Of a stretch of 58,084 nucleotides of DNA, positions 26,207 through 50,675 are shown in pieces; position 1 is the first letter of the stretch; each line of letters begins with the position of its first letter. The translations under genes and the position numbers were made by a program. Origin of the DNA: Atractiella rhizophila (lineage: Eukaryota); contig MU271253.1 in assembly GCA_021432655.1 (NCBI GenBank), positions 62,001 to 120,084 on the forward strand, in the 5' to 3' direction. The notes under the pieces are model-generated. The model saw only the letters and a program-made list of their open reading frames with translations, was not told the origin of the DNA and did no database searches.

Positions 26207-27823
26207 ATGAGCCCGCTTACAGGCATTGTTGGAAGTCTACCTTCGCGGTGCCGACACCACTCTCGAACGCGTTTCAGCATTATTAGGCGGCTTGCGCACA
26301 ACGATAGAGGTTCAGGAATTAGGAGTGAGCTAGATATGAAGGGAGTCAAGGTCCAGTTTGAGAAAGCATTTGTGGAAGCGTAAGTTTTTCAAGTAACGCG
26401 AAGCTGAGCTAAAGTCTTGCAGGAAAGAAAGCATGGGTAGAAAACGGCGTGGACGTCCCCCAGGACCACGTCCGTCCTTCTGCTAGTTTAGGAGTCTCTC
26501 TGATGCACCCAACTTCTAGGTACAATCGATCATCGTAATGAGCTACGATATAGAGCGTACCAGGCAAAGAACCATCACATTCGTGAAAGACCTGAAAAAA
26601 TGACATATAAAGGAAAGTGCATTCGGCCGCGAATCCCCAGACTTTTTCCTGAAAGATTTTTTTCAGATGTGGGATTGGCCAGGTTTCCGGCGCGCCAGGG
26701 TAAGAACAACTTGCGTCCTACACAAGTTATTTAACTGAACTAGGACATACACGCCGAGTACAAACATTAGTTGAAGGACGAGCGGGGAAAGGGGAGGAAT
26801 ATCCTCATGGATGCCACCTTTGCCCTTTCCGTTCGAAACATCTAGGGAATTTGAGAAAGTAAGATTCTTATCATCAATATTCAGGCAGTAACACCGTTTC
26901 AGGCACATACGAATCACTCATGATGATGCTGTTTCACATCTCTGCTCAGCTTGTGGTCGCGGTTTGTGTAGGTATTGTCTTACTCGGCTCTTTCGCATAT
27001 TAACTCTGGAGCAACCATCTAGCAACGAAGGTAAATGCGCGAAAACATCAAACCCAACGCTTTACACCACTGGAATGTCGTAATAGCCGCATTGTCATTG
27101 CTCCAAAATACCAAATAAAGGCGAATTGGATTTGTTCTGCATGCGAAGTATCATTCGGTACGTCAACTTTGCGTCGATATTGAGCTAAGTTGCATTCGTT
27201 TATAGAGCTGGAAGATGAGTATGAGCAACATCGAAGCGAGAGCACCTCCTCTGCTTGTAAGACCGGACGATCCTGTCACATTCCTTCTTTAAAGGAAAGG
27301 TTTGCCGTGTCCTCAAAACTTAAGGAGCAACTGAAGGAGTACCCGACTTGCCCCATATGCTTGACTCCTTTTCTGAACACAGTAACATTATACAGGTGAG
27401 GTGCAAAATTGCAAACTCCAATGGAGCAGCTCACGGATGTTCACCTAGGCATCAGCGCACGCACCATCAAGGAGAGCGTACAATATGCACAGGTTGCAAA
27501 CAACTGTATGGTATACGCTCCACCATGCCCTGCTGGATTTTCCTCATTGTCAGCGCGAAGCTAGGGACTATTACGTTCAGCGGCATCAGACGGAGACAGA
27601 TGAATGCAACGGTGCGCCGTGGTTCTACGTCCCTCCTCCTGGACCGACCAGCCAGATTCTCTGTCTTTGTTGTGGTAAAATATGCGGTACGCCCTTTGCT
27701 ATGTTCAAGCCGTTTCCGGCTCATCGAAGCTGGTAAACAGATACTGGAAAGATTTTCAATTCTCATAAAAAAGTCTCAAACGCGTGTTCAAATGCTGAAG
27801 GTTATCTCATTGCTAAGCCATAA
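26207..27823 (+). CDS. multi-zinc-finger (C2H2/C2HC) protein with presequence-like N-terminus, copy A
   Basis: Manual splicing gives MSPLTGIVGSLPSRCRHHSRTRFSIIRRLAHN...RKRRGRPP...CHLC-x12-HIRITH, CSAC..H..C, CSACEVSFELEDEYEQHRSESTSSAC, CPICLTPFLNTVTLYRHQRTHH, CTGC..HQTETDEC, CLCCGKICDTGKIFNSHKKVSNAC. Intron positions are shared with three paralogues. Confidence 0.75.
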
Positions 27824-28709
27824 TGGGAAGTGTACGTTTTTGATTCGCATCTGGAAAAACATTGTGACTAATAGAGGCTCACAGAACGGCGAGTTGTTGC
27901 CTGACTGGCACGCTGCCCAACCGTCTGCTGAGCTTGTGGACAAGATTGAAGCAAGCTCATCTGCATTTCTGAATGTATTATTGATGAGGCGTGTTCCTAT
28001 AGTTGTGGTTCTTGCAACGCAGAAATCGACAAAGTCAATTGCATTCCATTCTGAAATCTTCCCTATCGCCAATGCAATATTTCGATCCTTCCGCCGCGTG
28101 GATGTATAGCTTTTCCGATTATTGTCGTGATGCTGATTAGTGGATGTTACCTCCCTGATACCGATGAAGACGTCTACATGTGGGCCATGTGCACGCTCCT
28201 GGAAAACAGAATGAGGTTGAATTTGCACGCCAGACAACCCAAGTTGGAGTCTGGATGACCGAGCCTCAGTGGGTAGTAGGGGTATCGTCATTCATTCTCC
28301 AATTCCAGTAGTTTGTCGATGACCTGAGGCTCTGGAACGCTGAAGCAAAGTTCTTCCACAATCCTCACTGCTCCTACCACAGTACCATGGAAATTCCAGA
28401 ACGGGTTCCTTTTCAGTCTCAACCGCTCCTCTCCACTCTCCCAATCCTTCCACTTCTGGGTCCCCTCCGCGGATGTCCGCTCCGCAAATGAATCTAAGGG
28501 ACGAAGTGGCGAAAATGGGAGCGAACGATTTGTCATGAGCGAGGAGACTAGCAGGTGTGACGCTTGGAAAGGGAGGGGGACTAGGGGCGAAGGTCTTGTA
28601 GGAGAAGAGGGAGGAAAGGGGATAAAGAGGAGGCGGAGAGGGTGTGTGGGGAGGGAGGGTAGAGCGATAGGTGGGATGAAGACATTCTACATAACCATGA
28701 ATGAGCAAT

Positions 28710-29630
28710 CTAGTGTGTGAGTTTCATCAAGGTAGACTGTACCTGAAATCGCGAATCAATCTCCGGAGTCCAGCCTTCACCCTTCTCGACATCCCACTCC
28801 AAGAAGAGAATCTCAACATCACACCAATTATCTCCGATCATCTGGCCGCCACTCAAAAAGGCGCCAAAGGTCTGGATCCCTCCCAAAACTTTCGCTCCCC
28901 ATCCATCCAGTCCGAATTGCGTCCTCGCAACCTGTGCCCAATCCCGATGCACATTCTGCCAGCCGACGTAAGAAGCAATGAAGCGAGAAGTCAATGTTAT
29001 GCCACAGAGATGGGGAAACATGACTATCGACTCCTCCTTACCATCCACTCCTGCTCTTGGTTCTGATCGCATCTTCGAGTCCAAATTAATCTCATCCGCC
29101 TTCGAATCAGGCTTCACTTTCATCAAAGATGGATGGATACAAAGCGCGAGGAGAAGCTTCTTCAGTTTATCCGCTCCTAGATGGATGGGAATGACGAAAT
29201 CGAGGGTGATATGTCTCACATTCCTCCGCAGCCTCTTGCGCACGTCCTTCTTCTCTAAAACCTCCTCCAAGTTCTGCATACTGCTAAAGATGATTGCTCT
29301 ATTTAAATGTGGCAGGTATAATAAAGACGCCAGACGAAATGCCTTGCAGGTCTGACTGAATGCGAGCAGAGGGTTCCGCGATGGTTCAAAATAGGCCATT
29401 GGGGATCGATAAACGGGGAAGGTAGAGGGCGTTTCTGTGGAGCCACTGGAGCTGGGGAGAAAGGAAGCAATGAGCTCAAGGAGCTCCATAGGTAGGTCTT
29501 TGACGCCTGTTGACTCCTTGCCCAGAGGTCGCAATGGAGGTGTACTCGGGCTGGGTGTCGCGACGCCTTGACGGCTTTTGGGAACATAGGGTTTGTAAGT
29601 AAAACCAGCAGGATGATATGGCTGGGACAT
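28710..29630 (-). CDS. F-box domain protein; may continue in a further exon to ~28290
   Basis: 306-aa ORF with 'KDLPMELLELIASFL...LLAFSQTCKAFRLAS' F-box signature. Confidence 0.75.
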   Translation of the reverse strand: MSQPYHPAGFTYKPYVPKSRQGVATPSPSTPPLRPLGKESTGVKDLPMELLELIASFLPSSSGSTETPSTFPVYRSPMAYFEPSRNPLLAFSQTCKAFRLASLLYLPHLNRAIIFSSMQNLEEVLEKKDVRKRLRRNVRHITLDFVIPIHLGADKLKKLLLALCIHPSLMKVKPDSKADEINLDSKMRSEPRAGVDGKEESIVMFPHLCGITLTSRFIASYVGWQNVHRDWAQVARTQFGLDGWGAKVLGGIQTFGAFLSGGQMIGDNWCDVEILFLEWDVEKGEGWTPEIDSRFQVQSTLMKLTH

Positions 29631-30323
29631 CTATACCAACATAGAGGAATCAGAACCTGTCTGTTGATGATGTTCAACATTGCTGTAGTTTCATCAAATG
29701 CTCGACTTTGGCCAAATTTGAATGCTACCATATCACACAGGACTTTGCAACTCGGTCGAACTCAGGGATAACTGGAGAGCAGCAAGATTCAAGCTTGGAA
29801 TGTGCCTGGGTATCTCTCTCGAGGGAGGAAAAGATGACGGATAAAGCAGAGACTAAACCATTGCCAGATGCGAGATGACACACCTTGGAATCTCAATACT
29901 ACAACGCAAAGAGTCCCTTCTTGCTATTCCAACTCCACTGAACCTTTGGATCTTCCTGTAGAAGGGATATAGATAGACACAATCACAAGGTGTCAATATG
30001 AATATTGACGCCACTGTCACCATTGACCGACCCACACGTGACTTTCAAAGCTTTTGGTCCGCTTCCAAGGAAGCATTGTTACAGCTACCAGTCAAGTGCC
30101 AGCGACTCGTGTTATGTATTTTGGCGATGCTGCATGCCTCACCCTGACATTATATACCAGCATCATGGAAGGACCGTGATCTACGTACAGACCACGTACC
30201 TCATCGCGTACCTCGCGTACTGTTGAAGTTCAGAACCATTGAAGAAGAGCTTAGTCTTAGTCTGCTTCCTTTCCACAACGACCAACCACTCATTTGACTT
30301 GACCAGACGCCAAGGGGTTGACC

Positions 30324-33300
30324 ATGAAATCGAAAGGAAGAAGGTGGAGGCGACCAGTTCCAGGGGTGAGGGTGATTAGGGCAGGTCCATCTCGCAGAAG
30401 ATCTCCATTGCATTCGCACAATCAGGATACGGAGGTCGCGCAGACCTCTTCAACAGCAGGGATGGCTATCTTGGAAGAGACGTTCATATTTTTTTGAGCA
30501 CGGTTAGTTTTATAAGGCTGACGGTACTGTTGTAGTACGGAAAATCCAACAACTGTGGTCTCCTTCAACCAGGCGCGACTGACGGAATACTTCATTCACC
30601 AAAATGACTTGTCTACGTATCTTCGCAAGCTACCCAAAGCATTCGACCAGCGAACCGAAGCAGATGACGATGAGAATACCTTAGGAAATGAGCAGCGTGA
30701 GAACAAGGCAAACTCGAAGAAGCGACGTCGACGCTCCTCCGATTCAGATTCTTCAGAAGATGACTCTCCTCCTCAAACCAAGAAGAAACAGAAGCTTTCA
30801 AAGGACACATCTGCACCTGCCCCGTGTTTACCAATTCTAGAGCCCATTCCCTCCTACTTCATCTGCGTCCTCGAGCACGATTTTTACCTGACTGACCCCA
30901 CGTTCCAGTCAAGCCACACCATATCCCAAACGGACCTTATTACGCTTGATACGAACGGTCCGTGGATCGATGTTAAGGCGGATCGGCGGGTCGATGCTTG
31001 GATTAAGCAGATCCCAGTCCCGACTGATTGGAATGCACGGGCAGACAGTGGTACTGAGTTGGCGTGGAAACGCAGCAGCGAATATGGGGCGTATCTCTTA
31101 CGGTTTCGAGTTGACAGTGGCTCCACGACTAAACACTCTGAAGACTCGAACACTGAGAAGTCAAGGGTTTATGAATTTTTCCACAACACCCTAAAGCTTC
31201 CCAAAGATCTAGCTCGCTTCAAATTCGGAATGGAAGTAAAAGACAACGTTTTCAGCATCTCTGTGACGGTATACCTCAATCCCGCATACTGGACACCCTA
31301 TGTCCCTCCATCCATGACGAAAACAAACATCCTTCGATTCCTCTTCACACAGCGTCCCTTAACTGTGATAGAGGAAGAAGAGCTTTCGACTGTCAATTTC
31401 TACAAGCACCTGCGCGGTGGAAGACGCGTTCGCCTATCACCCCCTGCTCAATCGGTTAAAGGCAAGGAAAGGGCGATTGAACCTAACGAAGATCCTCCCA
31501 TACTCGAACCGCCTGGCCTGAATGCTAGACTAATGCCCTTCCAATCAAGAACACTAAGATGGATGAAAGCGCGAGAGGGGGAGGAAGAGAGAAAACAGGA
31601 CGCGGAGTTATGGTGGGAGGAAACACAGCCGAACTTCAACTTTGACTCGGCGCCTGAAGGGAAGGTATGGATCAACTGGATGAGAGGTGTTGTCGAGTGG
31701 GGGGAGAAGCCAACGTTGGAGCCGTCAAAGGGCGGGGCAGGGCTGCTGGCAGAGGAAATGGGGCTGGGAAAGTGCGTCGTTGTCGGTTTGAATTGACCTC
31801 AAGATTCATGCTAATACTCTCGCAGGACGGTCATCAGTCTTGGCTTAATACTTGAAAGTAAGTCAGTTTTACGACGTCAAAGCATCAGCGCGCATAAAGG
31901 AAATAGATCAAGAGCCAGATAGAAATGACCAGGAAACGTATTGGGATGATGAGCTCAAAGCCGACATTCAACCTTCTGGTCTCACCCTCATTGTCTGTGT
32001 AAGCATTGTCTTGCTTTTCTAAGTGTTGATTGAGGAGTGACTGCTTGCATAGCCTGGGACTATCGTTTCACAGTGGGAGAACGAAATTAGGAAGCATGCT
32101 GACGGGCTCCGAGTTTATCGATACGAGGTAACCTCTAACCCAAATTGTGCCGTTCATCTTGAATGTTGTGTTAGGGAGTAAACAAGCTCAAAAAGTATCG
32201 GGGCACCTGGGATGCTCAGGCATTTGCGAACGAGTACGCTTTAAGCTATCCTCTCACAGCGCCTAAAAACACACACACAGCTACGACATTGTCCTCACCA
32301 CATTCGATCTCTTGAGGAAGGAGTAAGTCCTTTGTTCCTTGTCTGAGCATGTCCTAATGTGCGGTCTTCGCAGAGTCGATGTGGCTCGTCCCCCAGTGGA
32401 TCGCAATACCCGAAGTAGACAATGCGATAATCCAAGATATGAGCGCTCCCTGTTCATTCGACTTGATTTTCTTCGCGTTATTCTAGATGAAGCACAACTC
32501 CTTCAAAATCCCATGTCCCATGTGTCAGAGACCGTCAGTTGTATCCGACGCAAACACAGCTGGGCTGTGACATCCACCCCCATCAAGACTGCTCTTGAAG
32601 ACCTTGCTTCGACTCTCAAGTTCCTGAGGATTGGGTCACAAACGAGTGGTGTTCATTGGCCAAACCTGATACGGCCCTGCTGTCGTCCAACTTGGGGGAG
32701 GTTGTGGGATCGAGTTGCTGTGAGAACCACAAAGGCGATGGTAGACAATGAAATGACGCTGCCAACTCAGAAAAGGTTCGTTATCATTACCGCGACTTGC
32801 GTTGAGTGTAACGATATGCAGATACCTATGTCCCATTCGATTCTCCAAGGTCGAGAGGTATACCTACGACGAGTTGTATTCCGAAGCTTTAATGAGTCTG
32901 GGGCTAAGCAAGGATGGAGTCCCGGCAGAAGAAGATTGGGTGCCTAATAGAGCTGGTAGATTTCATTTCCCACCCATGTTGACTGATAATAATACATTTC
33001 AAGCACTGGCGTACCACCTTTCTGCTTTGCGCAAAGTATGCTGTCACCCACAAGTAGTGGACCAAAACAATTTAGGATCAAGTGTCCTCAAGACGATCGA
33101 CGAGATCCTTCATTTTATGAGGCACCAGAACCTTGCGTCTGTCTTTCAAGAATCAAGAGCCTTAGGAGCTGCAGAATGCAAAAGAGCACATCTTGTCATG
33201 TTCGATGCTGAGAATTGTACGAGATTTGAAGAAGCCCTCGAAATTCTCAAAACTGTAATTGCTCGGTAGGTTGTGCTTCCTTTTCTGCATCTATCTGACG

Positions 33301-36300
33301 GCAAACAGGTTGGATCCTCTCTTGGACGAGATTAAGGCGGAACTCGGTCCTATTAGCGACGAATTGCAAACAGCGAGGGCTGAGAAGTATATTGCCACTT
33401 TCGTCGTAACATATACTGACTAGAACTTAGGGCAAGCATCGAAGAATCGGGATCGGAGCCCTCGGATGAAGGACCTGCACAAAATGCAAAAGCCGCAAAG
33501 GAGATGGGACTAGAAACTTTAGATGAAAAGGTCGAAAGGCTAACTCAACGTCATACAAGCATGAAGCAACATTCGAGGGAGCTGCTTCTAGTCTTACACA
33601 GTACACACTTCCTCTCCGGCAACTGCTATTTTAGCCTTGGAAAATTTCCTACAGAAGAGCGAGACTCCTATACAGATGCGGAAAGGATCAGAGCTACTGT
33701 AAGTTTCGATGTCCACCGCTTGCAATTGACTTATAAGTTCGCAGCTGCTGTCTGGTGAAAGGGTGGCGGCGGATCAAGCTGGTCAGAGGCTAAGAGTAGA
33801 TTTGCAACGGCGCGACATGTCCAAGGATTCGCTTAGGTTTCAATTGAGCCAAGTCAAAGGCGGCCTTCTTACCAATATGAATATAAAGGAGACCAATGGT
33901 GGGCCAAATTTTACTCTGTATTAGATCAATCATTTCAAGCTTATCCTGTGTACAGAAACGATCAAAGACCTAAATTCGATGGGCAAAGTGATATGGAAAT
34001 GGAGAGAGGAGATAATCAAACTTCTCCAGGTTCCTGTTAGCGCTGATGACGGCCAAGACGCCTCAGGAGATGAATATCAGAAAGGGTGCGCCATTGTCCA
34101 TATTCCGCTTCTGTTGCATGACCCGATTTTTTGCAGAATCGAGGTCCAAGAGCGCTGTGATGTCTATCTCTCCGCCTACTCCGAGCTATTGCTGGATTGG
34201 AGGGAGCTTATCACAGGAGAGAAGGTGCTCTCGAAAGGCAAAAGGCCCCGGTACAAGAAGAAGGTCGTACCAACACTCGAAAAGGGTTACCCTGCGGCAG
34301 AGGTGTTGGCGTATGAACTGAACGAAGAGGTCTGTGGTTCTGCAGCTTGCTGGCCGTCCCTTACTCCCAGAATAGTGCTGCAGTGTCAAGCCGGAAGAAT
34401 TCATAAACCTTCGAGACAACTACACGAAGCTCAACCACATTGCTAACGGTTTAAATCTAAAGAAAGACCATCCTGAACAATCCATCATTAAAGCCCAGAA
34501 GGTGTTCCTCAAAGAGCAGCGCGACGAGGGTCAGAAGGTTATAGCGAAGTTGTTGAACGAAGCCAATGTCGAGTTTAGAAGGGTTTTTAACACGCGTGCC
34601 GAATATTTCAAAGCACTCCAGTCGCTCAGCGACGACGTTTCTGATCCTGTCCTAACGCACCGGTCGAAGCCTCTGCTGACGCAGATTGCCGATGCGGCAA
34701 GGGAATCTGGTTTGTGCACGCACCTGTGAAACTGCCTCTTTATTAACAATAGGAACAGCCAGAGGTTGTGGGATCGAGTTGCTGTGAGAACCACAAAGGC
34801 GATGGTAGACAATGAAATGACGCTGCCAACTCAGAAAAGGTTCGTTATCATTATCGTGACTTGCGTTGAGTGTAACGATATGCAGATATCTATGTCCCAT
34901 TCGATTCTCCAAGGTCGAGAGGTATACCTACGACGAGTTGTATTCCGAAGCTTTAATGAGTCTGGGGCTAAGCAAGGATGGAGTCCCGGCAGAAGAAGAT
35001 TGGGTGCCTAATAGAGCTGGTAGATTTCATTTCACACCCATGTTGACTGATAATAATACATTTCAAGCACTGGCGTACCACCTTTCTGCTTTGCGCAAAG
35101 TATGCTGTCACCCACAAGTAGTCGACCAAAACAAGTTAGGATCAAGTGTCCTCAAGACGATCGACGAGATCCTTCATTTTATGAGGCACCAGAACCTTGC
35201 GTCTGTCTTTCAAGAATCAAGAGCCTTAGGAGCTGCAGAATGCAAAAGAGCACATCTTGTCATGTTCGATGCTGAGAATTGTACGAGATTTGAAGAAGCC
35301 CTCGAAATTCTCAAAACTGTAATTGCTCGGTAGGTTGTGCTTCCTTTTCTGCATCTATCTGACGGCAAACAGGTTGGATCCTCTCTTGGACGAGATTAAG
35401 GCAGAACTTGGTCCTATTAGCGACGAATTGCAAACAGCGAGGGCTGAGAAGTATATTGCCACTTTCGTCGTAACATATACTGACTAGAACTTAGGGCAAG
35501 CATCGAAGAATCGGGATCGGAGCCCTCGGATGAAGGACCTGCACAAAATGCAAAAGCCGCAAAGGAGATGGGACTAGAAACTTTAGATGAAAAGGTCGAA
35601 AGGCTAACTCAACGTCATACAAGCATGAAGCAACATTCGAGGGAGCTGCTTCTAGTCTTACACAGTACACACTTCCTCTCCGGCAACTGCTATTTTAGCC
35701 TTGGAAAATTTCCTACAGAAGAGCGAGACTCCTATACAGATGCGGAAAGGATCAGAGCTACTGTAAGTTTCGATGTCCACCGCTTGCAATTGACTTATAA
35801 GTTCGCAGCTGCTGTCTGGTGAAAGGATGGTGGCGGACCAAGCTGGTCAGAGGCTAAGAGTAGATTTGCAGCGGCGCGACATTTCCAAGGATTCGCTTAG
35901 GTTTCAATTGAGCCAAGTCAAAGGAGGCCTTCTTACCAATATGAATATAAAGGAGACCAATGGTCGGCCAAATTTTACTCTGTATTAGATCAATCATTTC
36001 AAGCTTATCCTGTGTACAGAAACGATCAAAGACCTAAATTCGATGGGCAAAGTGATATGGAAATGGAGAGAGGAGATAATCAAACTTCTCCAAGTTCCTG
36101 TTAGCGCTGATGACGGCCAAGACGCCTCAGGAGATGAATATCAGAAAGGGTGCGCCATGGTCCATATTCCGCTTCTGTTGCATGACCCGATTTTTGCAGA
36201 ATCGAGGTCCAAGAGCGCTGTGATGTTTATCTCTCCGCCTACTCCGAGCTATTGCTGGATTGGAGGGAGCTTATCACAGGAGAGAAAGTCCTCTCGAAAG

Positions 36301-38486
36301 GCAAAAGGCCCCGGTACAAGAAGAAGGTCGTACCAACACTCGAAAAGGGTTACCCTGCGGCAGAGGTGTTGGCGTATGAACTGAACGAAGAGGTCTGTGG
36401 TTCTGCAGCTTGCTAGCCGTCCCTTACTCCCAGAATAGTGCTGCAGTGTCAAGCCGGAAGAATTCATAAACCTTCGAGACAACTACACGAAGCTCAACCA
36501 CATTGCTAACGGTTTAAATCTAAAGAAAGACCATCCTGAACAATCCATCATTAAAGCGCAGAAGGTGTTCCTCAAAGAGCAGCGCGACGAGGGTCAAAAG
36601 GTTATAGCGAAGTTGTTGAACGAAGCCAATGTCGAGTTTAGAAGGGTTTTTAACACGCGTGCCGAATATTTCAAAGCACTCCAGTCGCTTAGCGACGACG
36701 TTTCTGATCCTGTCCTAACGCACCGGTCGAAGCCTCTGCTGACGCAGATTGCCGATGCGGCAAGGGAATCTGGTTTGTGCACGCACCTGTGAAACTGCCT
36801 CTTTATTAACAATAGGAACAGCCCTATCACAAGAGAAGCTGCAGGAAAAAGTGAGCTTTCAACCCCCAAATCGTCCAAAATCGTGCTCAACTTTGTTCAG
36901 CTTTCCAAGAAGAGATACCTTGACTTTCTTCAAAAACAAAGTAAGGAGGTTACACAGGATGAACGCCAATGTGTCATCTGCGCTGGAACTTTTAAGCACG
37001 GCGTTATTACTAGTGCGTACTGCAACTTACCGCCGGACTTCTCTTCTCACCTGTGCATCTTGCTTGTCAACAGATTGCGGACATCTCTGCTGTCTGAAAT
37101 GCTTCGAAAACTGGCGACTACGATCCCGCAGATGCAGCATCTGTCAGTCCGAACTCCCGCCGGGTTCCTGGCAAGAGGTGGATTTTGTCGAGAAAGGGGG
37201 ACTGGAACATGTTCCGGAGAAATGGACCAAAGGAAGCGCGTTTGAGGCTCCAAGCAGTCTAAACATGGTCGATCCAGCGTTGATGAAGTCAATCTCCCTG
37301 TTTGACTTCTCAAAGGGTCCAGAGGAGTTGCAACTCAATCCGTACGCTACATTCTGTGCTATACTCAGCTGCTGAGAAAGGTACACCTTAGGTTCGGTCG
37401 CCAGACTCAGCGACAAGTTCTTAGTTCCAAGCTTGACCTGTAAGCATAAACAGCGAGTTGTCGGGAGGATGTCCTGATTGGGGTAATAGAATTTCGAAGC
37501 ATATCAGGTACTTGCGGCAGCGGGATCCGACCTCTAAAGCAGTAGTGTTCTCGTGCTGGAAAGAGTCTCTTGATGTTCGTCTTTCTTCCTTCATAACATG
37601 ATCTGATTCTCATCATATTATTCGCCAGCTACTGTGGGTTTTTCCCTCTAAACTATGTTTGTGCCGCTCATGATCTTGGTGAAACAATCAAGAATGTCTT
37701 CCTTTAACCGGAATGGCATCCGTTTCGTCCGTCTAGAAGGTACTACAGCAGCACAGAAGCAAGCCGCTGTGACCAAGTTCGCAGAAGACGACTCGATTGC
37801 AGTTTTCGTCCTTCATACGCGGAGCCAGAGCGCCGGTCTTACCTTGACGTGTGCCAATTACCTCTTTCTGTTGGAACCACTGCTGCATCCTTCATTTGAA
37901 CTGTAAGTCAGCTTGTTCCTCTTTCTCCATTTAGCTCGGGAGGCCGTGGAGCAAGCTGACAGAATGAATGCAGGCAAGCTTGCGCAAGGATACATAGGAT
38001 TGGCCAGACAAGGCAGACGACCGTGTTTCAGTACTTCGTTGAGGGAACTGTTGAAGGTATGACCTTGTCTTTTTCTTCTGGGACGTTCCATATAAAGATG
38101 TGTCTGAACTAGAACGCATCGTTCACCACGCTGCTAGAGCAAGGACTTCGCTCTTTCTCACTTCCGAGGCCGCTCCGCCTGCTGAAAAAGAGAGCGAGGA
38201 CGCATACGCTCCCACATCTCCTTCTCGGAGGACGAAGAAGGTTGTCGAAGAAGGTGATGAGATGAGCTCGTTGGAGCAATTGCAAGAGTGCCTCTTTGAC
38301 AAGAACGTCTTTTTGGGCCTTCAAAGATTTTTGCTCGGTGAGGAGGCGAATATCGTTGGGGGCATTAGTGCAGACGATGACAGCACGATGGTCGAGGCTG
38401 AAGGCGTCGATGCTGATGCTGGATCGGGCATGATGGTCGATGAGAGCAGCGACGATGAACTGAACAGGCTCGAATTAGAGATGTGA
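30324..38486 (+). CDS. SHPRH/IRC20-like SNF2 helicase-RING E3 ligase, interrupted by an internal tandem duplication
   Basis: LMPFQ, LLAEEMGLGK (Walker A), VILDEAQ, WAVTSTPI, LRKVCCHPQV, RING CVIC..CGHLCCLKC..CSIC, and HELICc GLTLTCANYLFLLEPLL..RIHRIGQ. The long SHPRH-type helical insert lies between the lobes. Confidence 0.85.
32698..36823 (+). repeat. direct tandem duplication, units 32698-34760 and 34762-36823 (~2.06 kb, ~99% identical)
   Basis: The sequence gaggttgtgggatcgagttgc...aataggaacagcc occurs twice at an offset of 2064. The ORF track shows duplicated ORFs. About 25 differences were seen by eye. Confidence 0.97.
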
Positions 38487-41404: not shown

Positions 41405-42248
<844 letters not shown>

Positions 42249-42568
42249 GCCTGTGTTGACGTCTTCGGTGGAGTGAGATGAGATGGTGGAGAGGAGAGAA
42301 GATTCGCGTGAAGCCTTTGACGTTGTATACTATCTTATTATAACGAAGTACCCTACTACGATGACTTTCTTGAACGATTGCGCTTTGTCTCACAGTACAG
42401 CTATCAATTTATTAAACAGCTTGATATGAAGGCGGCTTCATGGTATTACACGGCAAGATTCCACCAACCAATTCTCAACCGCTAAGCTGATGTTCGGGCT
42501 GGTACCGTGTGGGTAGCTTGATCCTCTCTTCGGAAGGACAAAATGTGATTCTCCTTTTGTTCCGTGCT

Positions 42569-44263
42569 TCAGGGGCTCGACGCGGCGTCGCTCTGCCATT
42601 TCTCTCAATTGCAATGTCCCTCTTGGTAAGCATACTCGACGTGACGTACATGTTCCTCTGCGCCTGGATTGGCGGCGACAAGGTAATGGTCTGCGTCTTG
42701 ACACCTTTCTGAAGGCCCTTTATGGGCTTCGAAAGCCGTCGTACTTTCTGTTTACCTTCCTATGAAGCAGCGAGAGACCACACGGAAAGAACTGACCGAA
42801 TAATTTGGCGCAGCACAGACAAAGAATCTGATCATGCCGCCCTGGAGGAGGAAGATGAAAGGTCGGTTTGCCCGCACATCCAGGCATTTTTTTCCAATGC
42901 ACTGCAGGAGAGCATTTCAAGGTTCCAGCTATGCGCTCAGGTTAAGGAGAGCCTATCAGAAATGGTCGACCACGTACAAAACACCTGTTTGCAACCTGTG
43001 CATATTCTACGCTCTCCTATATGGTGCTGACGCTCATGCCTGGCTAAATCGTTAGCCCTTATATTAGAGTCAGCTTTAGATTCACACGAGCAATGATGTC
43101 CTCTGCAGAAAAACAGCGGAGCATTCTGGGCAGGTCGTGTAGTCCTTCATTCGCTCCCGAAACTTTGCGTAGAGCGCAGACCTTTCCTTGAACGAAGGAA
43201 TGTGAAGGCATCGTCCATCCTTACAACCTGGAGACATGCTCTCTCTACGGTGCCGGTCATATTCATCTTCTAGATCTGCAAACGCGTGATTTATAGCTCA
43301 AGATCAACGTAGAGGTCAACCCACCGAAAGATACTTCGCAGGCGGAACAAATCCAATTGGCCTTTATTTGATCCTTCGGAGCGAAGACCAGACGACCAGT
43401 CTTGCACTCCGGCAGCGTGAACCGTTTATCCCGATGTTGTTTCGCATTTTTTGTTTTGGCTACATCAATTGAAAAGAGTGATTAACGAACGATCGGCGCT
43501 GAGGAAACTCACAGAAACCAAGACCGCAGCCTGTGCAAAGATATAAAACAGCATCATCGTGAATTATTCGTATGTGCCTGCATGAAAACTTTCTTTAGTA
43601 TTGCCGCAGGGGATCCCAATGAAAATTTACTCATTCAGCTGAGCTTTTGACTTCACGCGGAAGGAACAATGTGCACATTCGTAAGGATATTCCGCTGCTT
43701 TTCCAGCACGCTGTTCGTTCAATCCTTTTCTTAGACGCCTGAATACTGTTTCCATGTTAGCCTGTGCAGACCGGAAGATTGTTCCTACCCTCCCGCCGCT
43801 GAAACCTGGTCAAGTCGTAGTCTGAATACACCTTTCAGCAGAACCTTATAATGCAGTCAAAGATCACTTTCCTTTTGCCGTGAATTTGCTCTTCGGTTGA
43901 TATTTCCGCTCTGTCTGGAATGCTTGAGACAACAGCTCATTGCGACGTTGAATCGTTACTAGACGACAACGCCTCAGAACGATTGTCAGGAAGGATATCG
44001 CGAAAAGGCCTACATCCTCGGGAAGACTTGCGCGGTGATTCCTTGTCGTCCGCACTTGCATGCTTCCTATAAGGAGTTAGTGACTGGCTGGTATTTACAC
44101 TATTGAACGCCTACATTTCCTCAGTCAGCTTCTCGACCTCAATTTCCTTTACAGGCTGTTCAACGCCGATCTCAGAAGTGGTACGGTTTTGAGTCAGCCG
44201 TCTGATGCTCGTGCAGTGTGACGTGGAGAGGATTGGGACGCGAAAAGTCATGCTGCGAAACAT
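42569..44263 (-). CDS. multi-zinc-finger protein with presequence-like N-terminus, copy C
   Basis: Start MFRSMTFRVPILSTSHCTSIRRLTQN. Also TIQRRNEL, EYPYECAHC, KANWICSAC, DYTTCPEC..HERQHH, ICTGC and QILCLCCAKLF..AHKGPSERC. Same intron positions as copy A. Confidence 0.72.
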
Positions 44264-44884
44264 TCCTTCGACAACAAGTTTTCAGTTAGCACTGGTAAAT
44301 TTCAGGAGTGCGGAGGGCTCAAAATCGGACTACATTTAAAACTCTAATCCTTCTGCTACTTCGCGTGTTCATTCAACATAAAATCAACATAGGTCCAGTT
44401 GTAGATCCTTTAGAAAAGTGGCAGTTGTCAAGCTGTTTGCTAGTGCGAAAGTTATACACTAGTTTGGAGGGAGAAAAGGTCTGGCTATGCTAAAAGAAAG
44501 GGAACCGCTGGAAAAACAATGGAGCAGGCACATACTTGAAGTCAACATGTTCCCAGGTCCTGTCATCCAGATACCACCCTAAGTTTCTGTATATTACGAA
44601 AAGTGGCGGAAATGACCGTGCGCAGCGTGTTATGTCTACTAATGCGATTAAGAGGGAAGATGCGTATTATTTGGGAGGATATTCAAGAGGTGGGAAGATG
44701 GACGGAAGCATGCGGGGAGCCGAGGGGTGAGAGGGGAACCGAGGAGGTAGTCTGAATTTTAAACACCATGGATTAATGTCGATTAATCCCAATTAACATC
44801 AAATTAATATTCAGTTTTGGCACGTGTTTTGTCTGTCTGGAGGAGGAAGCTCTATTTTTTCAAGACGGAAATTCTCCCTCAATC

Positions 44885-45236
44885 ATGGTGGCCCCCTCCA
44901 TTCTCTCCCGAAGAACGGCGTCTCAGTGGGTACTTCTTTCAGCCTTGTTCAATGCTCTGAACTGGATACAGATGTAGTACCTCGCTACTCCTCTGTCGGC
45001 GTCTATCGTCGACAACATCCTCTCCCAAACCGCCATCGCGTCATCTCTCCCTGTACAGGGACATCATTCCTTCGATGGCGTTACCTCTTGGAGTTTGTCT
45101 CCTCACCTTCTACGGTTTACGTGTGTACCAACAGCGGTGGAGTTGGGAGGAGGAGCGCGCTCTTCTCGAGAAGGAAGTGGACGGTTTCAAAAGCGAAGTT
45201 GACGTTCTTTTGGACCGCCAAAAACGCAAGGTGTAG
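44885..45236 (+). CDS. small predicted mitochondrial single-TM/coiled-coil protein (Ina17-like), 2 exons
   Basis: Spliced MVAPSILSRRTASHTSLLLCRRLSSTTSSPKPPSRHLSLYRDIIPSMALPLGVCLLTFYGLRVYQQRWSWEEERALLEKEVDGFKSEVDVLLDRQKRKV*, i.e. presequence, TM, coiled coil. Confidence 0.6.
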
Positions 45237-45537
45237 CTGGTCATGGGGGTGAATTTTGTGGAAATGCTATCTTCGTATCTGGGAGGAGGAAGAGTCAAAC
45301 GTTGCATTGTGCAAGACCAACGCGTTGGCGCGGGTAGGATCTCAGAATGCAACCGCGGAAGAAGCTGAGACAGTCCAAACAAGCCTCTTCGATGGTGCAT
45401 TCAAAAATGCAAATGAGCTTTTCAATTTTGGGCACAAGCTCCTGCGCAAGCTCAGAAGGCAGTTGAGCTTGTCAGATACGCAAACGAGTCACCGTTCTGT
45501 GAGCCTCCATTAGACACAACGTCCACCCAGATGCATA

Positions 45538-47164
45538 TCATCCAAAAAACGCACCCTCCGTGGTACGACTAGCAATACCATAACCTTCGGCATTGAAACA
45601 CGCGTTTGAGACTCTTTTATGGGAATTAAATGCCTTCCTGGTATCTATTTACCATCTCTCCATGAGCTGGAAACGACATGACGATATCAAAAAGGGACAT
45701 ACCCCATATTTTACCGCAACATAGACAGAGAATCTGGCAGCCTGGTCTGGGAGCAGGGACATAAAACCACCCCGCACGGCTACATGTATCTGTATTCGTC
45801 TGATGCTGCCGAAGAGCACGGTCCGTAGCTTCGCGCTCATAATGATGAGAATCCATGAGGTTATGGTGGAACGCGTACCATACAGCTGTTTGCAACCAGT
45901 GCATATTACACGCTCTCCTTGGTGGTCCATGCGCTGGTGCCTATATCCATGAGCTACCTCGTTGGAGTTTGACCTTGCGGCTCACTTGTACAACGTTGCT
46001 TTGTTAAGAAAAGCAGTCGAGCATGTTGGGCAAGTCGGATACTTCTTCAGTTGCTCCACGAATTTTGAGGACGTAGCGGACCTTTCCTCTAAGGAAGGAA
46101 TGTGAAGGGATCGTCCGGTGTTACAAGCTGGCAAGGTGCTCTCGCTTCGATGTCGCTCATACTCATCTTTCGATTCTACAAGCAAGTCAAACGTAGCTCA
46201 CTATCGACTCACAGGTGACGCACCAAAAGATACTTCGCAAGCGGAACAGATCCAATTCGCCCCCGTTTGGTCTCTCGGAGCAACTATGAAACGACTATTG
46301 CGACACTCCAGCGGCGTAAAGCGCTGGATTTGATGTTTTCGAGCATTCGTCTTTGTTGCTGGAAGGTTCGTACGGAGAGTTACAGCTCAATGATGTCAGC
46401 AAAATTAACACAGAACGCACAAAAACCGCGACCACAAGCGGAGCAGAGATGCGACACTGCATCATCGTGATTGATTCGGATATGGCTGCATCAGAGGGAT
46501 CGGTTTTACTGCATGAACCTTGGTCATAAAAATTACCTTTTTAAATTCCCGGAAACTTTCGAACGGAAAGGGCAATGGGGGCATTCATGAGGATATTCCT
46601 CGACTTTCCCCGCCCGTCCTTCAACTAATCGCATTATTCGGCGCGTATGACCTGTTCCGGTTAAATAGACGTTGCAGGATGCAAGTTGTTCTTACCCTGC
46701 CGCCACTGAAACCGAGCCAATTCCACATCTGAACGAATTGTTCAGCAAAGACGTTTGCAATGCAGTCAAAATGTACTTTCCTTTGAATGCCGATTTCGCG
46801 AGCTTTTCACGTCTTTGATGGTTCTGAGCATTAGACAGTAGCTTATTCCGAAGTTCAATTGTTCCTGAAAGTGATGACAAATCAGAGAGATTCTCGAACT
46901 AGCACAGGACGGACGTGGTCCTAGGGCACGCCCACCCTTCCTTTTGCCTGCGTTTATTTTCCTACAAGAGTTTAATGTCAGCCAGGCCAGCGTTACAGGT
47001 AAAGCTTACACTTCCGAAAAAGGTTTCTCAAACTCGACCTCGGCTTCCTTCACATTCTCTTCCCCCTCAATTCCAGAGCCGCTCTCGTTGTGTGCAAACC
47101 GTCTAATGATGGTGAAACGCGCTCGAGAGTGGTGCAGGCCGCGAAAAGGCAGGCTACGAAGCAT
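45538..47164 (-). CDS. multi-zinc-finger protein with presequence-like N-terminus, copy B (closest to copy A)
   Basis: Start MLRSLPFRGLHHSRARFTIIRRFAHN. Also EYPHECPHC, ANWICSAC, KYPTCPTC, ICTGCKQLY and QILCLCCGK..NSHKRVSNAC. High nucleotide similarity to 26207-27823 in inverted orientation. Confidence 0.75.
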
Positions 47165-47819
47165 CCCTATATCGGGCTCATTCAGTCAAAGGCAGGTTTA
47201 GAGAACACGCAACAACACAAAGCTTCCAGTTTGACGTTTGGGGTCAACGTCCCAAAATTGCCATGGATAGGATGGTGACGGCGTCACAAAGCGAAATAAA
47301 CAGAAAATGGATATCCGCTTGCATATTTTCTGTGCCCTTCCAATGATTGGTTTGATAGATGAAAGGGAAAGCATAATCGGCCCAAGCTCACCCTCATGAG
47401 TCTAGCGACATCTTGGGTCCCAGGTTTAAACAGCAGTACACAGTCGCAACAGATCAAGAAGAGCTTGGTCTCAGGAAATTTGACTGAGGTCACACTTGAA
47501 AGCGAGAGTGATCCCAACATAAGTGAAGGAATTAAGAACTGAAGTTGGCTGAAACAAAGACGACACGTACCTATCGCCGACATGCCAGTTCAATCCAATA
47601 GCGGGTTCTGCGTATCCCAATATTAAATAATTCCCCAAAATGCGCTTGGCAAGCTGCTCTAAACGGTCCACTGACAAAGGAGAGAACTGGGAAGCGGACG
47701 GAAATTCAAAGCAAACTTTAAACGCAGTCAGCACAGGTAGCACGGGAGGTAGCAGTGTTTGAGGATTCTGAGGGCTCATGACAAAGTGGATACTGTCTGC
47801 ATGTGGTAGAGTCAGCGAT

Positions 47820-48350
47820 TCGTCCATACGCACTCTATTTCTACGTCGTCCTCCTTCTCTCCTCCTCCCTCGGCCCAATCCCAAGGAACTGGACCACGAC
47901 ATTTGACTATCCATAAGCTCCTCCTATGAGTCTTCTCTACCCTCCACCACCCTCCGCAAATTCTCTTGCAAAGACGCCTTCATGTCACAAACGGGCACCA
48001 CAAAAACCACTTCCCGTGCTCAGCGTGAGGGAGAAGACTGTTCAAAGAGCCTAAATTTGAACGCAGAACAAGCGGAGCATCGCAGAGGAGACTGAGGCTG
48101 AAAGCGGCTCTCGAAACTTAAGCGCACGCAGCACCTCCCTGCTCTCTATCGATGATTTCTCCCTGCTCCTCCGCCTCGCTCTCCTCCTAACCTCTTCGCT
48201 AACCACCCTTATCAATGGAACTCTGACGGTGAAACCACGATCGCTAAGGCTCTCGCGGAAGTTGGCGGATGCAGCGTTGTGTTCGGTGGTTCTTAACCTG
48301 ATGGCAGTCCAAGCTGGATCGGTTCGTGGGACGGATGAAGAGACGGATCA
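47820..48350 (+). pseudogene. degenerate fragment of the PEX11-family gene at 22803-24364
   Basis: Aligns by eye to the reverse complement of ~23420-24000 (e.g. tttctacgtc, ccaccctccgcaaattc, aggctgaaagc, ctcctcctaacctcttc, ggttcgtgggacg), with indels and stops. Confidence 0.85.
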
Positions 48351-49025
48351 GCAAAGTCTGTATTGTCCCACAAGCACTCCGACTTTTCATTTTCCAGCCC
48401 CGCCTCGACTTGCCTTGGCTTTACCCTCAAGGACTCTACAATCAAATAGTAGAAAACCTTCAAAGATGTCTGACGATACTTGATGTATGGTAGGCCATCT
48501 CGACGCCATTTACTCAATTTTATCATGGAGGATGCTCATACAACGTTGCACACCCTAATACGGTAACATACTCTCTGAGCGATCCTGAGTCGATGCATAT
48601 GCGCCATACCATATACAGTAGAGATTCGACGGAACTTCACCCATGTTACAGTTCCACTTTAACATGCGCGTTCCTTCACGTGCTCCGCCCAACAACCTCA
48701 GATGGACGTTTCCCGGCGTTTCCGTCCACTTGCTATATGCTGCGCACACTAAATAGTTTACAGTGATGACATGTTGATGTTAAGTGAGTATCTGCTCTCA
48801 GTTCATTTGTTTTGTTCCTTTGCTGTCAGTTGCAAGTGCGACATTGGTTATTCACGCCGCAACCTGACTGTGTTGGAGTTCACTTGAATGATATAATAGA
48901 AGAAAGAAGAAACGTTGCTACCAAGAAGAGTCTCAAAATGTTTATGATAATAATAGATATAGGCAGTCTCCTAATGTGTTTTATAGCGCTTTTGGTAGGG
49001 GAGAAGCTCACTCTCTACGCAGTTC

Positions 49026-50675
49026 ATGCAACCCATTCGCCATGTATTGAATCCTGCATGCTCTCGACACCTCACCAGTTCTAAACTGATCTATGGAGCA
49101 GGGAAGGTTCCCAGATTCCCTTTCCTTGGCGTGCTACACTCCCCGTCACACGTCACCATCGTCCGACGGCTTACACACAACGCTGCAAGTTCTGGAACTG
49201 AGAGTGAACAAAATGCAAAGGAATCGGAAACTGAGAAACCGTATGTCGAAGTTTAAGCTCATGTTCTCTCTGGGCTCTAAACCTCTACAGAAAGGTAAAT
49301 CGTAGCATCGAGAAACAACAGAAGAAGAAAGGCAGAGAACCACGTCTGTCCCGCAGCGACATTTGGGAAAATGTCTGATCCTCCATCACTTCTAGGAACA
49401 ATTCATCGTCGCAATGAACTACTATCTCGACCTCGCCGCGCAATGCGGAAAATCCAGGTTGCTGAGGAGTCTGAAATGAAGAGGAAATCAATAGATTATT
49501 TAATGGCAAGATTTCAAGTTCGAGAAGGTGAGGATAATTTTTGCATTCTGCACAAACCATTGATGTCAAAGCAGGCCGTAAACGACGAGCAGAGCAATTA
49601 ATCGAGGAACGTGCTGGAAAAGCGGCGGAATACCCGCACCAGTGCCCCCATTGCTCTGTCCGTGCAAAAAGACGTAGTCATTTGTCAACGTAAGATTCTT
49701 ATCAAGCTTCTCTGATAAAGAGCTGATCTCTGTGATAAAGACACATACGAATCGTCCATGACGATGCTATTTCACATCTTTGCTCGGGCTGTGGCCAAGG
49801 ATTTTGTAAGTTTCTTTTACTGCAGATCATTCACCTATTATTACTGAGGATCTGTCTAGCAATGGGGTCGACTGTGCGAAAACACCAAACCTGGCACACC
49901 GCGCCATTGGAGTGTAGGAGTGGTCGTCTTGTCGTTGCTCCGAAAGACCAAACAAAAGCAAATTGGATATGTTCTGGCTGCGACACATCATTTGGTGTGT
50001 GGACCTGAGCTGATATTATGCCATGAATGACCGTTTTATAGACTTGGAAGATGAATATAAGCATCATCGGGTCGAGAGCAGTTCTCCAGCTTGTCAAACT
50101 GGACGATGCTTTCACATTCCATCATTCGAGGAAAGGATGGCGCTGTACGCGAAGTTTCGCGAGCGAATGAAGGACTACCACACCTGCCCAAAATGCTCGG
50201 CTAATTTTAAAGAGAAAGGAACATTACTTCGGTGAGCCTGCAAGGCATAACTGGCAGGACCTGATCATGTGACCGTAGGCATTACCGCTGGATCCACCAA
50301 CGAGAACGTATGATATGCACAGGTTGTGAGACGGTGTACTGTACGCGCTCTACCATCTCTCATAAATCCCCTCATTCTTTGCATAAAAGCCTCTCTCATG
50401 TCTTACTGGACGCACATGAGGAAGTCAGACGATTGCAAGGGCACGCCGTGGTTCTATGTACCTGCTCCGGGACCAGAAGATCAGGTTCTCTGCCTATGCT
50501 GCGGCAGAATAAGCGGTCCGTCTTTCTCGTTCAATATTGTGAGGTCTTTTTCAGTTCATAATGGGAAACAGAAGGCGTAACGACTTTTAAGTCCCATAAA
50601 ACAGACTCAGATACTTGTTTGAATGCTCAAGGTTACCTTATTCCTGCACAAGGCAGCGCGTCTGTTCGTTCGTAA
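49026..50675 (+). CDS. multi-zinc-finger protein with presequence-like N-terminus, copy D (closest to copy C)
   Basis: MQPIRHVL...VTIVRRLTHN, TIHRRNEL, EYPHQCPHC..HIRIVH, KANWICSGC, DYHTCPKC..HYRWIH, ICTGC, QVLCLCCGRI..SHKTDSDTC. Confidence 0.72.

Follow-up and report, generated by a model that had tools for sequence, protein, structure and literature searches.

The question raised by this locus is whether a cluster of zinc-finger genes from Atractiella rhizophila encodes nuclear DNA-binding proteins or proteins that could also act in mitochondria. The window (the whole 58,084-nt stretch of DNA analysed) contains four such genes, A–D, which were modelled by threading four annotated proteins letter for letter onto the window, extending them to the ATGs proposed in a first-pass annotation and adding the joints seen in RNA:

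Gene A, 26207..27823, + strand: 11 exons, 373 aa; the annotated protein P0004 (330 aa) begins at an internal Met at 26336.
Gene B, 45489..47164, − strand: 12 exons, 369 aa; the annotated protein P0003 (257 aa) begins only in exon 5.
Gene C, 42569..44263, − strand: 12 exons, 380 aa; the annotated protein P0001 (376 aa) begins at the second ATG, at 44251.
Gene D, 49026..50725, + strand: 11 exons, 398 aa, provided that translation starts at an ATG further upstream and exon 1 uses an alternative donor; the annotated protein P0002 (293 aa) begins in exon 3.

The ends of A and C agree with the first-pass annotation, whereas B ends at 45489 (not 45538) and D at 50725 (not 50675), in each case because of one further small 3′ intron. 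Ten introns are common to A, B and C in both place and phase, D keeps nine of the ten, and the phases repeat as 2,1,1,2,1,1. Nucleotide identities among the paralogues (blastn of the four regions, each with 300 nt on either side) are 66–76%:

A and B: 74.2% over 1857 nt.
A and D: 67.1% over 1098 nt.
A and C: 69.3% over 632 nt.
C and D: 75.8% over 302 nt.
B and D: 66.0% over 1066 nt.
B and C: 69.4% over 467 nt.

These identities, together with the common intron positions and phases, bear out the earlier description of A–D as four paralogues with a shared gene structure. Self-comparison of the window by blastn reveals only the clustered paralogues and duplicates of flanking genes, with no repeats bracketing A–D, and the copies arose by segmental duplication. 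A match to a transposon protein, which had been named as counting against the proposed family, was not found by Pfam in the four proteins scanned (no transposase, integrase or THAP/BED-type domain at E ≤ 1), and the 10–11 conserved introns argue for a host gene rather than a transposon-derived protein.

The spliced reading frames of A–D are uninterrupted, as had been claimed, but in A, B and C the intron that separates exon 3 from exon 4 is not of the GT-AG type. It is a rare GA-AG intron, present in RNA contigs of C and B and missing from D:

GA-AG intron of A, 26613..26666, + strand: 54 nt, GAAAGT...TTCAG; the annotated protein is reproduced by this boundary only.
GA-AG intron of B, 46729..46780, − strand: 52 nt; joint 46728/46781 (CT..TC at its ends when read on the + strand) in contig sets X4, X2 and X1.
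GA-AG intron of C, 43822..43871, − strand: 50 nt; joint 43821/43872, with ends CT..TC, in X4, and the threaded protein.

GT-AG versions of this intron (from GTGCAT, GTACAT or GTGATC to TTCAG) would leave all three genes one nucleotide out of frame. Dynamic programming over splice sites disrupted A–D around exon 3 when held strictly to GT-AG, and extended the 3′ ends too far under loose rules. The truncated automatic annotation of B is attributable to the GA-AG intron.

RNA-derived contig sets (X1–X4) contain spliced contigs of B, C and D, and support all introns of C, several of B and at least two joints of D. All 11 introns of C are present as joints in X4 contigs, with the exon 1–exon 2 joint (44065/44114) in both X4 and X1. 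In B the joints listed are 45828/45879, 46649/46694, 46728/46781 and 46484/46537, two loose contig ends, 46864 and 45497, are compatible with introns 2 and 11, and an X4 contig of 1212 nt extends to 47276, 112 nt upstream of the ATG. The leader exon is joined to exon 2 in RNA contigs of both B and C. The first-pass annotation had named transcripts starting downstream of this exon as evidence against its reading; in B and C the exon lies in the mRNA, and A and D are less secure. The joints listed for D are 49525/49574 (X4) and 50663/50717 (X3). Depth over bins of D exon 1 is 2.5–3.7, versus 30–46 over the gene body, and the main X4 contig stops near exon 2; since contig depth is flat and cannot rank parts of one gene, the low exon-1 cover is only a weak hint. 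RNA cover is nearly nil across 47466–48613.

A–D match hypothetical proteins under the A. rhizophila name (the annotated products listed above). Relatives were sought among 1.84 billion proteins, and the family has at least seven members with the full architecture, including P0005, P0007 and P0017, all seven from A. rhizophila. Among the best 150 of 24382 representative-library matches, four cover the greater part of the 292-position profile with a single unbroken alignment; these four are from A. rhizophila, and the remainder are poly-finger proteins aligning in multiple stretches. Pattern matching with the exon-8 profile gave 83 metagenomic matches, only two of which held up in tblastn, with 47% identity over 19 residues in each case, and these are not relatives. 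ESM Atlas searches with the whole protein (four common finger families excluded) and with residues 150–256 gave generic C2H2 look-alikes only. Within the searched proteins the family is thus lineage-specific, as proposed, and nothing beyond generic C2H2 was found that would give it a name. Literature naming A. rhizophila concerns, in its available parts, ecology or taxonomy, with no proteomic or localisation data found there.

Each protein contains six fingers arranged as 2 × (CCHH-CCHC-CCHC), in these regions:

Six-finger region of A (exons 5–11), 26744..27823, + strand: invariant Cys/His columns, with an AF2 model.
Six-finger region of B, 45489–46651, − strand: matches the region of A.
Six-finger region of C, 42569–43745, − strand: matches the region of A.
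Six-finger region of D, 49575–50725, + strand: matches the region of A.

None of the 24 Cys/His ligand columns varies among the members covering them. Fingers 1 and 4 have the classical C2H2 spacing (C-x2-C-x12-H-x4-H in all covering members), and fingers 2, 3, 5 and 6 are without a conserved second His and carry an invariant Cys 6–10 residues past the His, which is the likely fourth ligand of a CCHC variant. Linkers between fingers 1–2 and 4–5 have the canonical length of seven residues, and long conserved segments between fingers are specific to the family (ECRxGRxVxAP..QxKANWIC and PWFYVPPPG). The two halves of the array align colinearly (22% over 114 aa in B, E 1.5e-7; E 0.002 in A and C), which, together with the repeating intron phases, speaks for an internal duplication of a three-finger module. 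Three of the four proteins scanned pass the 25.2-bit gathering cut-off of Pfam zf-C2H2 (P0001, 28.5; P0002, 51.4; P0005, 31.5 bits; P0004 scores 22.5), and zf-C2H2_4 is also matched; none of four single exons has a Pfam match, because introns split the fingers. In the four proteins scanned there is no Pfam domain upstream of the fingers and no BTB, KRAB, SET or other partner domain.

In the AF2 model every finger consists of paired strands and then a helix, mostly with pLDDT of 70–90, and two helices span residues 66–117. The top matches, both by Foldseek and by sequence against the PDB, are the DNA-bound arrays CTCF, ZFP568, PRDM9 and Aart (Foldseek probability 0.84–1.00, E 7e-7 to 1e-3; sequence E 1e-22 to 1e-16), although TM-scores on the query of 0.12–0.15 indicate that only single fingers or pairs superpose. 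This likeness in fold and sequence backs the earlier prediction of nucleic-acid binding, and the closeness to nuclear DNA-binding arrays also speaks for the proteins being nuclear factors. Whether the proteins could instead bind RNA, either in mitochondria or in the cytosol (e.g. in the splicing or stabilisation of organellar transcripts), and not double-stranded DNA, is raised by the four non-classical CCHC fingers of the six, whose 6–10 residues between His and Cys could make RNA or protein contacts, by weak, below-cut-off Pfam matches to zf-C2H2_jaz and zf-met, and by the ESM Atlas look-alikes of residues 150–256, which often carry zf-C2H2_jaz, a dsRNA-binding finger (a lead only). However, the top structural and sequence matches are bound to DNA, the seven-residue linkers are typical of DNA-wrapping arrays, and variability follows the DNA-recognition pattern of helix positions −1, 2, 3 and 6; RNA binding is a rather improbable alternative.

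It is on these four helix positions that variability centres. Pairwise identity at base-contacting positions is 0.18, versus 0.39 in other finger columns (none of 10000 permutations is as low), and omega is 0.52–1.60, versus 0.17–0.32. The proposed diversification of the family therefore applies to these positions and not to whole regions, where dN/dS is 0.23–0.75; outside the base-contacting positions there is purifying selection. Divergence being fastest at base contacts, the paralogues probably differ from one another in the target that they read. Such recognition-helix diversification is typical of nuclear zinc-finger expansions, with KRAB-ZNFs as the comparison, and to that extent favours nuclear factors.

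A family of recent, pseudogene-like duplicates, transcribed and decaying with no selected role, could account for the altered start regions of A and D, for the lack of relatives beyond one species within the searched sets and for the excess of nonsynonymous changes among listed strain variants of B (seven, versus three synonymous). It is hard to reconcile with reading frames intact over 11–12 exons in A–D, with the invariance of every ligand column, with finger-region dN/dS of 0.25–0.37 at dS of 0.5–1.5, with spliced RNA contigs for three of the genes, or with the strain variants of C (six synonymous, four nonsynonymous), and is highly improbable.

The first-pass annotation described an N-terminal leader that ends in RR[LF][AT][HQ]N; after it come acidic residues, then a basic patch, then the fingers. 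This order is seen in the spliced proteins of A–D, and the leader sequences quoted for B and C are exact:

Leader of A, 26207..26302, + strand: 32 codons; the start ATG is homologous to a small upstream ORF of B.
Leader of B, 47087..47164, − strand: 26 codons, MLRS...RRFAHN; within an X4 contig piece, 47009–47276.
Leader of C, 44186..44263, − strand: 26 codons, MFRS...RRLTQN; exon 1–2 joint in RNA.
Putative leader of D, 49026..49181, + strand: 52 codons; AAG in place of the ancestral ATG.

Five of the six members with a known N-terminus have 20–60 Arg-rich, acid-poor N-terminal residues and share M[FL]R..FR...S[HR].T.[IV]R[RP][LF][TA][HQ][ND]; the exception is P0017, with a net charge of +1. 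The first Asp or Glu is at residue 33 in A, 27 in B, 31 in C, 59 in D and 26 in P0007, and the first 30 residues of these five have a net charge of +5 or +6. The same five members keep an RR[LF][AT] or RPF-T motif, which would be R-2/R-3-like if a real cleavage site lies there. Presequences, according to the available part of PMC7723863, comprise 20–60 N-terminal residues that are Arg-rich and acid-poor, form an amphiphilic helix and place Arg at −2, −3 or −10 from the cut; the composition and motif of the leader fit such a presequence as far as sequence can tell. The maximum hydrophobic moment (Eisenberg scale) is 0.36–0.44 over 18 residues in the five conserved leaders and 0.33 in P0017, versus a control median of 0.35, and 0.40–0.71 over 11 residues, versus 0.51. 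Two other assignments were rejected: a secretion signal, since leaders read by eye have no hydrophobic run of at least seven residues, and an AT-hook as a family feature, since the canonical RGRP core is in A only.

Ordinary nuclear transcription factors could have the same layout, with the six fingers on promoters in the nucleus, the acidic stretch as an activation domain, the basic patches as nuclear localisation signals and a disordered or regulatory Arg-rich tail that resembles a presequence by chance. KRK, RKRR and KKK patches and an acidic stretch do precede the fingers, and the model shows residues 1–64 as disordered (pLDDT below 30). The ancestral ATG, common to B, C and P0007, is ATT in A and AAG in D, such that both genes rely on upstream in-frame ATGs, and the ancestral exon-1 donor GT of D is now TT; the leaders of A and D are less secure than those of B and C. 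Finger arrays also have intrinsic nuclear localisation, and engineered mitochondrial zinc-finger nucleases need a nuclear export signal besides the mitochondrial targeting signal, according to the available part of PMC5783712. Chance resemblance sits less easily with a leader that lies at the exact N-terminus, is free of acidic residues for at least 25 positions and switches abruptly to acidic residues after RR[LF][AT] in five of six members, with the rarity of an acid-free start combined with high net charge in unrelated finger proteins (2 of 152 in a crude control), or with purifying selection on the leader in most pairs (dN/dS 0.23–0.40 in five of six; 0.75 for C–D, on 26 codons). Purely nuclear factors stand as a serious possibility, somewhat under an even chance.

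Mitochondrial or dual import, for which the evidence consists of leader composition and motif, is given a likelihood a little short of even. Several points count against this step: the ATG loss in A and D and the donor loss in D, the hydrophobic moment close to that of controls, the N-terminus of P0017, the nuclear-activator-like basic and acidic layout, the annotated starts of A, B and D downstream of the leader, the low cover of D exon 1 and the C–D leader dN/dS. The prior is also low, since to our knowledge there is no natural fungal mitochondrial C2H2 array. Literature searches for fungal C2H2 proteins with a mitochondrial targeting sequence acting on mitochondrial DNA found none, and those for C2H2 proteins and the mitochondrial nucleoid found no such family in the available parts of the sources.

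The reading put forward, held tentatively and at slightly less than an even chance as a whole, is of a sequence-specific nucleic-acid-binding six-finger family with a putative cleavable mitochondrial presequence. The observed part of it comprises the paralogy, the splicing and expression of the genes, the arrangement of the fingers and the way in which the copies diverge; translation of the leader and import are the inferred part. In B and C the ~26-residue N-terminal stretch would be translated and would act as a presequence, cut by MPP at an R-2 site or by MPP and Icp55 at an R-3 site. At least B, C and P0007 would then enter the mitochondrial matrix, either as their only destination or with part of the protein in the nucleus, where in the matrix their sequence-specific fingers would contact mtDNA or mtRNA, and the import signal of A and D may be changing or decaying. 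A bolder and unlikely extension is that Atractiella has evolved its own equivalent of the mitochondrial zinc-finger reagents made by engineering, in which diversifying matrix proteins each have their own mtDNA or mtRNA target and A and D are drifting to leaderless nuclear forms; such readers might, for example, control transcription in mitochondria, the activity of introns or plasmids there, or conflict between mitochondria and nucleus.

Polydactyl C2H2 proteins are archetypal nuclear DNA readers, and few sequence-specific regulators of fungal mtDNA are known. If the mitochondrial reading is right, the family would couple a cleavable presequence with programmable fingers, making it an organellar regulator of a new class and a model from nature for tools that target mitochondrial genomes. 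Should the proteins be nuclear instead, they still offer a compact basidiomycete case of recognition-helix diversification in an unusual 2 × (CCHH-CCHC-CCHC) layout, with an RNA-supported GA-AG intron retained in three paralogues.

The family resembles CTCF, ZFP568, PRDM9, TFIIIA and Aart in its tandem beta-beta-alpha fingers, C-x2-C-x12-H spacing and seven-residue linkers (fingers 1–2 and 4–5), and departs from CTCF-type arrays in its predominance of CCHC fingers (four of six), its own inter-finger segments and its lack of a BTB, KRAB or SET partner. Like the tetrapod KRAB-ZNF clusters it consists of clustered segmental duplicates with a conserved scaffold and fastest divergence at base contacts; unlike them it is tiny (at least seven genes), fungal, fixed at six fingers and without KRAB, has a presequence-like leader and carries introns inside the fingers, all of which lie in one exon in KRAB-ZNF genes. 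Kinetoplastid editosome KREPA C2H2 proteins and plant OZ RanBP2-type editing factors are zinc-finger proteins on organellar nucleic acids, but belong to other lineages, with other finger types and architectures and no sequence relation to the family in any search. The leader is like those of MPP/Icp55-processed precursors in its 20–60 Arg-rich, acid-free residues and Arg two or three residues before a plausible cut, RR[LF]/[AT] (available part of PMC7723863), but its amphiphilicity is not clearly above that of controls and its passenger is a nucleus-prone finger array. Engineered mitochondrial zinc-finger nucleases are artificial, include a FokI nuclease and depend on a nuclear export signal that has been added to them, and the family proteins have no nuclease domain by Pfam; if the import reading is right, both would share an N-terminal mitochondrial targeting signal followed by a multi-finger array (available parts of PMC5783712 and PMC5027515).

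Four paralogous genes encoding proteins with six zinc fingers are located within the window:

26207-27823, forward strand: gene A, 11 exons, 373 aa
47164-45489, reverse strand: gene B, 12 exons, 369 aa
44263-42569, reverse strand: gene C, 12 exons, 380 aa
49026-50725, forward strand: gene D, 11 exons, 398 aa

Pairwise comparison of the four gene regions gives nucleotide identities of 74.2% over 1857 nt (A-B), 67.1% over 1098 nt (A-D), 69.3% over 632 nt (A-C), 75.8% over 302 nt (C-D), 66.0% over 1066 nt (B-D), and 69.4% over 467 nt (B-C), and this range (66.0–75.8%) bears out the proposal in the first-pass annotation that the regions are paralogues. The four-gene family it described is confirmed, and its description is sharpened. 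The annotated proteins match the genes letter for letter when threaded (P0004, P0003, P0001, and P0002 for A, B, C, and D respectively). Only the annotated model of C retains the leader, a presequence-like, Arg-rich, acid-free N-terminal stretch of ~26 residues (in B and C) ending RR[LF][AT][HQ]N; it is missing from the annotated models of A, which starts at an internal Met (26336), of B (starting in exon 5), and of D (exon 3). The models listed here were lengthened to the ATGs first proposed, using homologous splice sites and RNA joints, and contain no internal stops. Ten intron positions are common to A, B, and C in both place and phase, with nine of the ten present in D, and B, C, and D each have one extra small intron close to the stop codon at a site that differs between genes. 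The 3′ ends first assigned to B and D are slightly off because of these extra introns.

In A, B, and C, exons 3 and 4 are separated by an intron of the GA-AG type, as seen in part by RNA joints in public sequencing runs (X1—X4, analyzed as contigs):

26613-26666, forward strand: GA-AG intron of gene A, needed by the annotated protein
46729-46780, reverse strand: GA-AG intron of gene B, RNA joint 46728/46781 in X4, X2, and X1
43822-43871, reverse strand: GA-AG intron of gene C, RNA joint 43821/43872 in X4 and needed by the annotated protein

The joints omit 52 nt in B and 50 nt in C, with intron ends that read CT..TC on the forward strand, i.e. GA..AG in the sense of the gene. All three genes have the donor GAAAGT; D precisely lacks the intron. 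No GT-AG pair at this position in A, B, or C is removable in frame. GA-AG introns are a known but rare non-canonical class (PMC7072748), and this intron probably explains the missing 5′ exons in the annotated model of B.

The family is expressed. The four runs were compared with 42300–50900, which contains C, B, and D (A is outside this range), and X4 resembles spliced RNA from a closely related strain. All 11 introns of C are present as joints, several also in X1, X2, and X3, and at least six introns of B (2, 3, 4, 5, 9, and 11) are backed among the joints and loose ends listed. In C, X4 and X1 show exon 1 joined to exon 2 (44065/44114), and in B a 1212-nt contig spans exon 8 to 47276, passing the ATG (47164) by 112 nt on its upstream side, which places the leader exon in the mature mRNAs of both genes; with regard to transcripts starting downstream of the leader, the mitochondrial reading therefore survives in B and C. 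The main X4 contig of D (1020 nt) stops ~24 nt into exon 2, as counted from exon lengths, and bins have depths of 2.5–3.7 in exon 1 versus 30–46 across the gene body. Because contigs give a flat depth, this hints only weakly that the leader exon of D is rarely included in mRNA.

None of the 24 Cys/His ligand columns varies among the members covering them. Fingers 1 and 4 follow the classical pattern C-x2-C-x12-H-x4-H, and fingers 2, 3, 5, and 6 have C-x2-C-x12-H followed by an invariant Cys 6–10 residues later, such that the order CCHH-CCHC-CCHC occurs twice. Intron phases in this region also repeat (2,1,1,2,1,1) and one half aligns colinearly with the other, at E 1.5e-7 in B (22% over 114 aa) and at E 0.002 in A and C, so the ancestral gene underwent an internal duplication of a three-finger module. 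Pfam searches reveal generic C2H2 families only, exceeding the cut-off in three of the four proteins scanned. An AF2 model of P0001 (mean pLDDT 68, pTM 0.40) has fingers mostly at pLDDT 70–90, two helices over residues 66–117, and values below 30 for residues 1–64. Exon 2 of A (26423–26469, forward strand) encodes KRRGRPPGPR, which contains RGRP, the core of a canonical AT-hook; in the other paralogues this position holds just a basic patch.

Values of dN/dS among the four genes are 0.25–0.37 for the whole finger region and 0.30–0.54 for the linker; for the leader, of only 26 codons, they are 0.23–0.40 in five pairs and 0.75 for C-D. Helix positions -1, 2, 3, and 6 have a mean pairwise identity of 0.18 versus 0.39 in other non-ligand finger columns (none of 10000 permutations as low), with omega of 0.52–1.60 versus 0.17–0.32 elsewhere, noisy estimates from 23 codons. 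The helix positions diverge while purifying selection holds elsewhere (dN/dS 0.23–0.75 for whole regions), so the family was rightly called diversifying for its recognition surface only. The 27 strain variants listed (8 more exist) comprise 3 non-coding, 11 synonymous, and 13 nonsynonymous changes, with synonymous and nonsynonymous counts of 6 and 4 in C, 3 and 7 in B, and 2 and 2 in D.

A profile of the longest exon (A1) is matched at E ≤ 0.001 by five of 480 candidate proteins, each bearing the name of a hypothetical protein from Atractiella rhizophila, and one 120-kb contig encodes four of the five. A profile of five members (A2; 292 positions) searched against 1.84 billion representative proteins (E ≤ 0.001) gives 24382 matches, nearly all poly-finger proteins with 5–35 separate matching stretches. 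Among the best 150, only four have a single matching stretch that takes in most of the 292 positions: P0001, P0003, P0007 (365 aa, E 3e-66), and P0017 (396 aa, E 3e-40), the last two being A. rhizophila proteins encoded on other contigs. P0005, also encoded elsewhere, brings the family to seven members or more, all in one species. A metagenome scan found no relative, and weaker orthologues could lie below the best 150 of the 24382 matches. Few relatives of A. rhizophila are sequenced, so the restricted range of this architecturally distinctive family holds within what was searched.

The window DNA is fungal, and ORFs near the family genes match MFS transporter, SNF2/RING, F-box/LRR, aspartyl protease, and UPRTase families. 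Local gene duplicates seem abundant. Part of the head-to-head gene upstream of A (23420–24017) is found again, inverted, upstream of B (47802–48348; 69% identity), indicating that the A/B duplication took the neighbor along; RNA contig cover of the copy near B is almost nil. A 2063-bp head-to-tail repeat (32698–34760 and 34762–36823; 98.8% identity) within a SNF2/RING-type gene region reflects very recent tandem duplication or else an artefact of assembly, and diverged paralogous segments (237–2183 and 6147–8059; 64% over ~2 kb) adjoin an F-box/LRR-like ORF. Between C and B is a small gene (44797–45252, forward strand) with a GT-AG intron (joint 44925/44972), high RNA contig depth, and no Pfam match.

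The leaders of B and C begin with M[LF]RS and are acid-free up to RRFAHN (B) or RRLTQN (C) at residues 21–26; that of P0007 opens MFRKVAFR and closes VRPFTHD. A and D have the same block placed behind upstream in-frame ATGs. The first acidic residue is at position 33 in A, 27 in B, 31 in C, 59 in D, and 26 in P0007, and the first 30 residues of these proteins have a net charge of +5 or +6, a combination found in only two of 152 unrelated finger proteins, a crude control that is mostly animal. The N-terminus of P0017 is different (net charge +1). The hydrophobic moment of the leaders does not rise clearly above that of controls. Judged by composition and motif, mitochondrial or dual import would have slightly less than an even chance.

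Nuclear-only action is also plausible, at somewhat short of even, and other readings share what is left. The case for mitochondrial import is weakened by several features. The ancestral ATG is gone in A and D, and in D the ancestral exon-1 donor (49237–49246, forward strand) has changed from GT to TT, with a GTATGT 9 nt upstream usable in frame instead, suggesting that this 5′ end is under remodelling. The 5′ UTR of B contains a 4-codon upstream ORF (47167–47181, reverse strand) whose ATG is homologous to that opening the ORF of A, and is out of frame by a 1-nt difference. The acidic stretch and basic patches would also fit the layout of a nuclear activator. A literature search (supplements lying outside it) for natural mitochondrial C2H2 arrays and for work on A. 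rhizophila returned nothing relevant.

The family very probably binds nucleic acids sequence-specifically. DNA-bound arrays, among them CTCF, ZFP568, PRDM9, Aart, and TFIIIA, are retrieved by Foldseek and by sequence searches of the PDB; TM-scores are low, and the likeness is generic, not membership of a named subfamily. The acid-free, positively charged leader, with Arg 2–3 residues ahead of a putative cut, would fit presequences and the R-2/R-3 motifs as described in PMC7723863. Counting against import, finger arrays self-localize to the nucleus, and engineered mtZFNs require an export signal besides the MTS (PMC5783712).
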